58,445 nt of DNA from the UHGV virus genome UHGV-0021275; one strand, written 5' to 3'. Of this stretch, positions 8,303-8,930 are shown one piece after another (position 1 is the first letter of the stretch; each line of letters opens with the position of its first letter). A program made the translations under genes and the position numbers. Source of the stretch: a virus. The notes under the pieces were generated by a model. It had not been told where the DNA came from and did not search any database. It was given only the letters and a program-made list of their open reading frames with translations.

Positions 8303-8519
8303 ATGCTGTATCCATCTATATGACAGTTCATAGTGTACCACAAATGGCGCACTATGCTACCGTTTCGGCACATTTTATTATTCGTGTCGCGGCATCTCCA
8401 TAACATTACCTTACGCGAAACTCGACATTAGAAACCGCAACCATAACATTATGGTTGCTCATTTGATTACCTCAATTACGCCATAGATATTACCCGGAGC
8501 ACAGAGCAGTGCAGTTTTT

Positions 8520-8551
8520 ACCCCGGTTGGTGACTCCGGGGTCTTTTTTTG
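8520..8551 (+). terminator. Stem-loop plus T-tract oriented for plus-strand termination
   Basis: ACCCCGG-ttggtgact-CCGGGGT followed by TTTTTTT, in the gap between the low-GC orphan gene and higB. No plus-strand gene is annotated upstream of it. Confidence 0.45.
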
Positions 8552-8576
8552 TGCAGCGTTTTAAGGTATGTCACTT

Positions 8577-8930
8577 TTAATTAGTACGTAGTTTCCCTTT
8601 AGTAGAAATATGCGACAGCCCTACACACTCTTCTAATACACAAAGACGTTGTTCAGTCTCTGAATCAACCCAATATATACTAAATTCGACTAATGCCGGG
8701 GCAAGCCACTTATGTCGTTGAATAAGACGAGTTAATACCTTAGTACATATTTCATCGTCATACTGTCTACTTGGGTTATCTCCTACAAATACACAACCTG
8801 TACCTTTTACGAGGAAAAAATCCCAACGAGCCATAAACTGTTGGATATCTTTATATGCAAGAGTTAGATACGCACCGGAATATGTATCACGCAATTTTTT
8901 ATTATCTATCTGTAGAATTATCATGTACAT
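8577..8930 (-). CDS. Hypothetical protein encoded in a low-GC island
   Basis: 117-codon ORF in a visibly AT-rich stretch, unlike the flanking sequence. No recognisable motif. Confidence 0.5.
   Translation of the reverse strand: MYMIILQIDNKKLRDTYSGAYLTLAYKDIQQFMARWDFFLVKGTGCVFVGDNPSRQYDDEICTKVLTRLIQRHKWLAPALVEFSIYWVDSETEQRLCVLEECVGLSHISTKGKLRTN

Follow-up and report, generated by a model that had tools for sequence, protein, structure and literature searches.

The locus that concerns us here lies in the virus genome UHGV-0021275, a stretch of 58,445 nucleotides which we call the window, and it raises two related questions: What is the open reading frame of 117 amino acids (ORF117) found at 8577–8930 on the minus strand, and what is the non-coding gap which separates it from the higBA toxin-antitoxin (TA) genes? 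ORF117 is carried by members of a rare family of E. coli phage-plasmids of about 58–60 kb. The family includes pSTEC648_2 (CP061838.1), a closed circular E. coli plasmid of 60,552 bp, in whose GenBank record the gene is annotated as "hypothetical". A preliminary description of the sequence had considered ORF117 a recently acquired moron, and had suggested for the gap either a small RNA or the higBA operator. The answer we propose, to which we give about an even chance as a whole, is that ORF117 is a functional accessory gene with a dead VapD fold, an orphan VapW-like antidote against VapD, and that the gap is the scarred border of a module.

The preliminary description had found no recognisable motif in ORF117. 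This is true for Pfam, where no match is detected at E values up to 0.1, CRISPR_Cas2 included. PHROGs and PADLOC give nothing useful, and the viral structures in BFVD show no match at E up to 0.001. The statement does not hold under more sensitive comparisons, all of which lead to VapD. A comparison of ORF117 with 18 VapD sequences using hhalign has a probability of 96.3% (E 1.6e-9, residues 1–88). BLASTP against the canonical VapD of a sibling element gives E 2e-8 with 24% identity, and the alignment is collinear from Met1, with the shared pattern MY.I...D..L...Y...AY.DI...F...G.V..G...W. All four ORF117 alleles match the NCBIfam VapD model NF041506 weakly, at E 1e-4 to 5e-3; that of ORF117 (E 1.4e-4, 22 bits) does not reach the cut-off of 100, the score of the curated family. 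Xylella VapD is the only match in a sequence search of the PDB. An exhaustive HMMER search of 1.84 billion representatives returns the family itself, a repetitive artefact (P0005) and a stand-alone VapD-like protein (P0006), nothing else. P0006 is a bridging relative: It matches VapD at E 5e-16. Its gene context, in which no vapD partner is found, is uninformative.

An AlphaFold model built from the four alleles alone has a confidence score (pLDDT) of 66 and already presents a beta-alpha-beta-beta-alpha-beta ferredoxin topology. When VapD sequences are added to the alignment, the resulting second model has a pLDDT of 80, and its significant Foldseek matches are VapD chains only (E 1.5e-5, TM score 0.78 normalised to the target). 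The top fold matches of ORF117 are VapW, VapD, and Cas2. The modelled topology is beta1-alpha1'-alpha1-beta2-beta3-alpha2-alpha2'-beta4-alpha3, a modified ferredoxin fold, which is the topology given for VapD and VapW (Gilep et al. 2025, PMC11980593). ORF117 would share its fold with the VapD endoribonucleases of H. influenzae (VapXD, 6zn8/6zi0), H. pylori (HP0315, 3ui3), and Xylella (5dyr). Unlike them, it lacks Asp7, Ser44, and the conserved DIRMLRIE strand motif, and its C-terminus is longer by a segment of some 20 residues. In all four alleles Asp7 of VapD is aligned with Gln7, and Ser44, in the QGS motif, with Cys46; the catalytic Ser of VapD is numbered 43, 44, or 46 depending on the species. 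The D7N mutation abolishes the toxicity of VapD (PMC11980593, Gilep et al. 2025), and a VapW is a VapD homologue with at least one of the catalytic residues mutated (PMC11980593). As judged from the alignment, ORF117 has lost both of them, unlike an active VapD, and in this respect it resembles VapW antitoxins. On sequence grounds, ORF117 is a remote VapD homologue of the Cas2 superfamily: a new, deeply diverged and apparently catalytically dead branch of the VapD family, present as an orphan on a phage-plasmid. Its inactivation was probably an event independent of that of VapW.

The comparison of alleles suggests that this is not a decaying reading frame. The ratio of non-synonymous to synonymous divergence (dN/dS) is 0.05–0.2, with a dS above 1, which points to purifying selection on a real, selected gene. 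The C-terminal extension contains a segment, residues 89–100, which is invariant across alleles and is not present in VapD. ORF117 also appears to have its own promoter and Shine-Dalgarno sequence, at 8931–9008 on the minus strand. A TATAAT -10 hexamer is found at 8966 to 8961, and a GGAG at 8940 to 8937, read as a Shine-Dalgarno sequence 6 nt upstream of the ATG at 8930; a good -35 was not found in this promoter. The sequence CTGTATAAT is unchanged among diverged alleles, although the neighbouring DNA varies.

The gene is markedly AT-rich, as the preliminary description had noted. Its content of guanine plus cytosine (GC) is 0.362, with 0.246 at third codon positions (GC3), as against 0.509 for the whole window. 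This is within the lowest 0.4% of all 354-nt segments, about 3.9 standard deviations under the mean; only one other region, 33658–34356, is equally AT-rich. Moron is a fair description of ORF117, an optional AT-rich cassette made of a promoter and a gene, since its slot is either empty or otherwise filled in relatives. On the other hand, it is not a recent arrival, because its alleles, with the dS given above, differ in about 25% of their nucleotides. As in other phage morons, the cassette is self-contained and low in GC, carries its own -10, and is found between backbone modules; it differs from them in the lack of a sense-strand terminator and in its old, diverged alleles.

The divergence of the alleles is restricted to the gene. 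They are about 75% identical in DNA, though the backbones are otherwise about 95% identical. In one of the relatives (L010, in our numbering of loci L001 to L026) the flanking gene of 94 amino acids, the 3' end of the replication gene, and higBA are all 94–96% identical to the window. The same holds in broader terms when both L010 and L007 are compared with the window: ORF117 is about 75% identical, the adjoining backbone genes and higBA 86–96%. Such alleles between near-identical flanks indicate that old versions of ORF117 are shuffled among near-identical backbones. It follows that either alleles have been replaced through recombination, or balancing or diversifying dynamics have acted over a long time; in both cases ORF117 alone would be affected.

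The cassette adjoins the final gene of the replication operon on one side and, on the other, a conserved border terminator. Its slot is empty in L023, where the border hairpin follows the 94 amino acid gene almost directly, and in L013–L020 and L026 it is occupied by unrelated reverse-strand genes of 168–203 amino acids. We considered the upstream 94 amino acid gene as a cognate partner of ORF117 and rejected it: It is found in all members of the family, with or without ORF117. Downstream of the border there is a hypervariable TA island, which in the window holds higBA. Its contents across relatives are higBA, relB-parE, yafQ-relB, phd-PIN, a convergent GNAT toxin operon (tacA-like), and, in many members, vapD. 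Between the 94 amino acid gene and the lysis genes of L001–L026, type II TA modules are swapped and partial deletions are numerous.

The presence of vapD in this island suggests a function for ORF117. A canonical active vapD, with Asp7 and Ser44, is found in nine siblings (L013–L020 and L023), which are 93–95% identical to each other in this protein; in E. coli, this VapD cluster occurs on contigs of about 50–62 kb from the phage-plasmid family. In L004, vapD lies directly downstream of ORF117, in the same antitoxin-then-toxin order as in VapWD. There is also a second dead VapD paralogue of 99 amino acids, with a GTG start, Lys7, and Gly44 (7266–7565 in L001, 6481–6780 in L010, also in L011 and L012). 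Its C-terminal half is nearly identical to that of active VapD, while its N-terminal half is strongly diverged. It is found after higA in ORF117-bearing siblings without active VapD (L001, L010–L012), and it is not present in the window. This neighbourhood, with active vapD in siblings, the gene order in L004, and the second dead VapD, is what makes us favour an antidote or immunity role.

VapW antitoxins are inactivated VapD homologues (PMC11980593), which contact VapD through the surface used by VapD dimers to build hexamers (PMC11980593). By analogy, the most likely mechanism would be that of an orphan VapW-like inhibitor of VapD. ORF117 would bind VapD-type nucleases through the VapD-VapD contact surfaces that it has kept, and would block the assembly or the activity of the bound VapD. 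It could then serve as an orphan antidote or immunity protein against the VapD of sibling or co-resident elements. The loss of both catalytic residues would be the same evolutionary move which gave rise to VapW antitoxins.

Several observations weigh against this proposal. No vapD is found anywhere in the window, and among about 15 ORF117-bearing loci L004 is the only one with vapD downstream, so the adjacency typical of VapW is found neither in the window nor in most carriers. Even in L004 the two genes do not form a tight operon, since they are about 230 bp apart (233), with a hairpin and a promoter in between. Most of the siblings bearing vapD (the nine loci mentioned above) have no ORF117, which cannot be their obligatory partner. 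We should also note that the loci were fetched by means of the ORF117 and vapD genes themselves, so the pattern of presence and absence is biased. The sibling VapD is closest to the VapD of H. pylori, which is stand-alone, and of H. influenzae, which is paired with VapX (E about 1e-12), and far from the VapW-associated VapD of C. jejuni (E 0.35). The ORF117 profile has no sequence match to VapW (9kan_D) at E up to 10. As to the structure, the VapD-rich alignment biases the second model toward the VapD fold, a bias from which the first model is free. In VapW, the C-terminal helix alpha3 is folded onto the core of the same chain and a homodimer like that of VapD does not form. The C-terminal 20 residues of ORF117 are modelled at low confidence; a predicted helix at 93–101 has a pLDDT of about 60 or lower, and residues 112–117 are below 50.

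A rival explanation is that ORF117 is a neofunctionalised protein with a VapD fold which does not neutralise VapD, for example a nucleic-acid-binding regulator or an inhibitor of host defence or of a host factor, its TA neighbours being incidental. We regard this as possible, though doubtful. Most carriers of ORF117, like the window, have no vapD at all; alleles far more diverged than their flanks (75% vs 95%) are to be expected in an arms race with some partner; and the invariant C-terminal segment is unique, with no equivalent in VapD. Nevertheless, no other partner is indicated; PADLOC, PHROGs, and BFVD yield nothing, and neutralisation of VapD is the sole role characterised for dead VapD homologues (PMC11980593). 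It is highly improbable that ORF117 has remained active as a toxin or nuclease by means of alternative residues such as Cys46, or that it is a Cas2 mimic which poisons spacer acquisition by Cas1-Cas2. Gln replaces Asp7 in every allele, and D7N is enough to inactivate VapD (PMC11980593). No antitoxin candidate specific to ORF117 adjoins it, the upstream 94 amino acid gene being present in all family members. As to Cas2, the PADLOC Cas2 models match the sibling VapD (E 1e-9), not ORF117, and the sequence similarity of ORF117 is to VapD, not to Cas2. An orphan VapD inhibitor is still the reading we prefer. A wider version of it, which we put forward only tentatively, is that sibling phage-plasmids are engaged in an arms race fought with a single fold: Some carry active VapD in the cargo slot, while others lack it and carry one or two independently derived dead copies (ORF117 and the 99 amino acid protein with Lys7 and Gly44) as orphan decoys or antidotes. 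If so, carriers of dead copies could coexist with VapD-armed relatives or displace them, and these would be the first "toxin turned antitoxin" proteins of the VapW type to act as stand-alone immunity genes of a mobile element.

The closest known system is the VapW of VapWD, a type II TA module (Gilep et al., mBio 2025, PMC11980593; PDB 9kan). Unlike this VapW, ORF117 is an orphan, since neither the window nor the majority of carriers has a vapD to pair with it. It has no detectable sequence similarity to the C. jejuni protein, and the sibling VapD near it falls outside the VapW-associated clade, in the group of H. pylori and H. influenzae. It has instead its own predicted promoter, a terminator before the next gene, and a phage-plasmid as carrier. 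Phage-borne orphan antitoxins and toxin inhibitors exist, for example T4 Dmd, which acts against RnlA and LsoA. If our preferred reading is right, ORF117 would likewise be an antidote without the matching toxin, a variant of the "toxin turned antitoxin" theme. Antitoxins derived from dead toxins (VapW) were described only in 2025, solely as partners in two-gene modules; that a deeply diverged copy under selection occurs as an orphan on a phage-plasmid suggests that proteins of this kind can spread on their own, as genes for immunity or against toxins. In any case, a predicted fold and a testable function can be assigned to a family which has no entry in Pfam, PHROGs, or PADLOC.

We now turn to the gap between ORF117 and higB. 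The length of about 235 bp given in the preliminary description is correct if higB starts at the GTG at 8341. Gene callers choose in relatives the ATG at 8302, which gives a HigB of 99 amino acids and a gap of 274 bp. The gap is a recombination-scarred junction, not a gene. It is made up of a terminator, a promoter palindrome belonging to the cargo slot, a relB-like relic, and the upstream block of higBA.

The terminator is found at 8520–8550 on the plus strand. Its arms, ACCCCGG (8520–8526) and CCGGGGT (8536–8542), form a 7-bp G+C stem with 6 G-C pairs and a 9-nt loop, with a free energy of -13.3 kcal/mol, and a run of seven T (8544–8550) starts one base past the stem. The hairpin with a T-tract in the plus-strand orientation which had been reported is indeed there, and has the features of an intrinsic terminator on that strand. 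The plus strand has T-runs on both sides of it. Read on the minus strand, the stem is followed by five A, so it should only terminate plus-strand transcription. Our pattern scanner missed this hairpin because its loop is longer than 8 nt. The same terminator is found at the border without ORF117 in L023 and L026. In L009 it is preceded by a convergent GNAT toxin gene with its TAA stop inside the CCATAACATTATGG palindrome, so that the terminator has there a plus-strand gene to end. L010–L020 have a homologous hairpin, also with the loop TTGGTGA, which is turned the other way; its stem is extended, and its T-run points toward the replication operon. In a local alignment to the L013 sense strand, the plus strand of the window scores 21 and the minus strand 12. 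An inversion of the whole spacer was considered and rejected: The hairpin alone is reversed; the spacer that leads from it to the palindrome keeps its sense, in a weak alignment. In the window, the terminator is probably a backstop which would keep plus-strand transcripts from entering ORF117 and the replication genes in antisense. Their source could be read-through of the late-operon terminator at 7599–7625, or a start within the cargo slot.

The two variant copies of a palindromic motif which had been described in the gap are both present, and are exact copies of CCATAACATTA, at 8398–8408 and 8441–8451, 43 nt apart. The second one is part of a perfect palindrome at 8437–8458, on neither strand in particular, with 10-bp arms GCAACCATAA/TTATGGTTGC, which contains the motif CCATAACATTATGG at 8441–8454. 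It overlaps CATAAT (8453–8448), the -10-like hexamer of a promoter-like site on the minus strand which also has TTGAGG at 8475–8470. In L013–L019 the canonical CCATAATATTATGG is found at the same place, just past the border hairpin, with vapD there, not higBA. The motif is genome-wide, as had been stated: There are 22 sites with up to 3 mismatches to the 14-bp palindrome CCATAATATTATGG, where 2.5 would be expected, and in 100 shuffles the number never rose to 22. Sites of ATAATATTAT, extended to CCATAATATTATGG, number 21–22, with about 2 expected; examples are found at 3225, 6307, 17364, 27193, 30845, 35478, 37687, 39390, 42196, and 53702. In about half of the palindrome sites the ATG of the motif is a real gene start, 2–4 nt after a GGAG similar to a Shine-Dalgarno sequence. 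The other sites are intergenic or contain the stop codon of a gene in the opposite strand, as in 30845 in the window and in the GNAT gene of L009. No consistent -35 element is found in palindrome sites. The mosaic and deletion breakpoints of the cargo slot fall at or beside copies of the motif. The palindrome could serve a dispersed regulon as its operator, act as an operator at the level of translation, or mark the junctions of modules.

Neither of the roles proposed for the gap in the preliminary description, in the form given there, finds support in these data. As the HigA operator of higBA the two CCATAACATTA copies are very unlikely candidates, even though they lie upstream of higB and one of them is in a perfect palindrome that overlaps a -10-like hexamer, part of a promoter-like site on the minus strand. 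The motif is found about 20 times in the genome, at many unrelated genes, and one copy is the start of a decayed relB-like gene. The canonical palindrome is at the same border upstream of vapD in L013–L019, which have no higBA there, while L007 and pSTEC648_2 keep higBA and have lost the palindrome by deletion. The DNA which does travel with higBA is 8303–8375, a block with its own inverted repeat. A short plus-strand regulatory or antisense RNA at about 8456–8550, transcribed from TCGACA-16-TAACAT (8422–8449) and ending at the hairpin and its seven T, is also unlikely. There is something to be said for it: a strong terminator in the plus strand only, without any plus-strand gene upstream in the window, and a promoter-like site at a suitable distance with 9 of 12 matching positions, whose -35-like and -10-like elements have counterparts in L010, as read from the alignment. 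Nevertheless, the searches are negative. The best Rfam results in 8342–8576 are anti-hemB (18.7 bits, threshold 49.5) and RyhB (17.1, threshold 55), and these sub-threshold matches are driven by the terminator. The 97-nt candidate, 8456–8552, folds no better than shuffled sequences (z = -0.21), and promoter-like sites are not enriched (6 vs 4.4 expected). By our alignment count, about 10 of 75 positions in the segment between palindrome and hairpin differ between the window and L009, without any compensatory pattern, and the region has no matches outside the phage-plasmid family. The terminator does not need a small RNA as explanation, since it is a conserved border element, which ends a convergent gene in L009 and stands alone in L023 and L026. 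There is a lesson for annotation in this: What looked odd here, the terminator and the copies of the motif, was left behind when cassettes were exchanged at the edge of a module, and does not amount to a new RNA gene.

The first motif copy, extended to 8398–8411, contains the ATG (8401) of the relB-like relic, which has seven codons and ends with a TAA at 8378, so the whole feature covers 8378–8411 on the minus strand. Elsewhere this gene appears in different stages of decay. It is full-length, with 74 amino acids, beside parE in L023, and a C-terminal fragment of 52–53 amino acids in L002 and L010–L012; it is more deleted in L007 and pSTEC648_2. The fragments match the RelB-like antitoxin model NF048017 in NCBIfam at E 7e-8 and 1.6e-6, under the cut-off, and cover positions 34–70 of 70, its C-terminal half. 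In the window, an in-frame internal deletion has left only the start and the end, as compared to complete RelB/ParE modules, and with seven codons the gene cannot function; its promoter and palindrome are now directly upstream of higBA. We have also observed that several lineages have preserved the fragment of 52–53 amino acids whole, immediately upstream of higB, where it might act as another antitoxin which binds HigB, or be simply a relic.

The block at 8303–8375 (minus strand) accompanies higBA in every relative and in CP061838.1, and is a probable promoter and operator of higBA. An inverted repeat, CATAGTGTACCA/TGGCGCACTATG, is found in it at 8329–8356, which is a better candidate for the HigA operator than the CCATAACATTA copies. 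The genes have the toxin-first order usual in HigBA modules, both on the minus strand: higB at 8003–8302, with 99 amino acids from the ATG at 8302 (Pfam HigB-like toxin, E 1.1e-26), and the antitoxin gene higA at 7690–7992 (Pfam HTH_3, E 2.4e-11), whose product is a HigA family protein in CP061838.1. Directly after the higA stop, at 7595–7680 on the minus strand, there is a full-length match to the AgrB RNA of Rfam (RF02891, 48.1 bits, gathering threshold 40), the only one above threshold in the whole window. In E. coli, AgrB is the antisense small RNA belonging to dinQ, a type I toxin locus; we searched for a dinQ-like peptide reading frame near it and found none. This AgrB-like RNA shares the bidirectional terminator at 7599–7625 with the plus-strand lysis operon, and relatives, L004 among them, also have it where the cargo slot ends on the right.

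The window is the apparently complete genome of a plasmid-like prophage, in which tail, capsid, and lysis genes are present. A DUF927 primase-helicase is encoded at 9262–12381 on the minus strand; the closest deposited phage protein to the replication protein, from Pseudomonas phage Rollin, is only 27% identical. Closely matching contigs of 58–61 kb recur across E. coli assemblies and metagenomes. A megablast search with 7600–9300 gives zero matches among 50,697 phage records and 5,426 complete E. coli genomes. In a DNA search CP061838.1 is the single plasmid matched, by higBA only, and the match stops at 8375 in the window. A distant blastn search with 8342–9010 has pSTEC648_2 as its sole match and does not detect any E. 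coli RefSeq genome. Neither tblastn with ORF117 against phages nor a scan of IMG/VR with the ORF117 alignment gives any match.

Two other regions of the window deserve mention. The reading frame of the giant LPD38 protein extends past the window start. In this LPD38/YkuD polyvalent gene (ORF 2–4963) a perfect ATAATATTATGG at 3233 on the plus strand provides an in-frame internal ATG, and gene callers split or shorten the gene differently in relatives, with products from 1626 to 2458 amino acids. The other region, 33400–34860, is the only strongly AT-rich stretch apart from ORF117, with GC down to 0.33 at 33900–34199. It has about 1.4 kb without a long reading frame, is flanked by divergent gene blocks, and may be an origin or a regulatory region.

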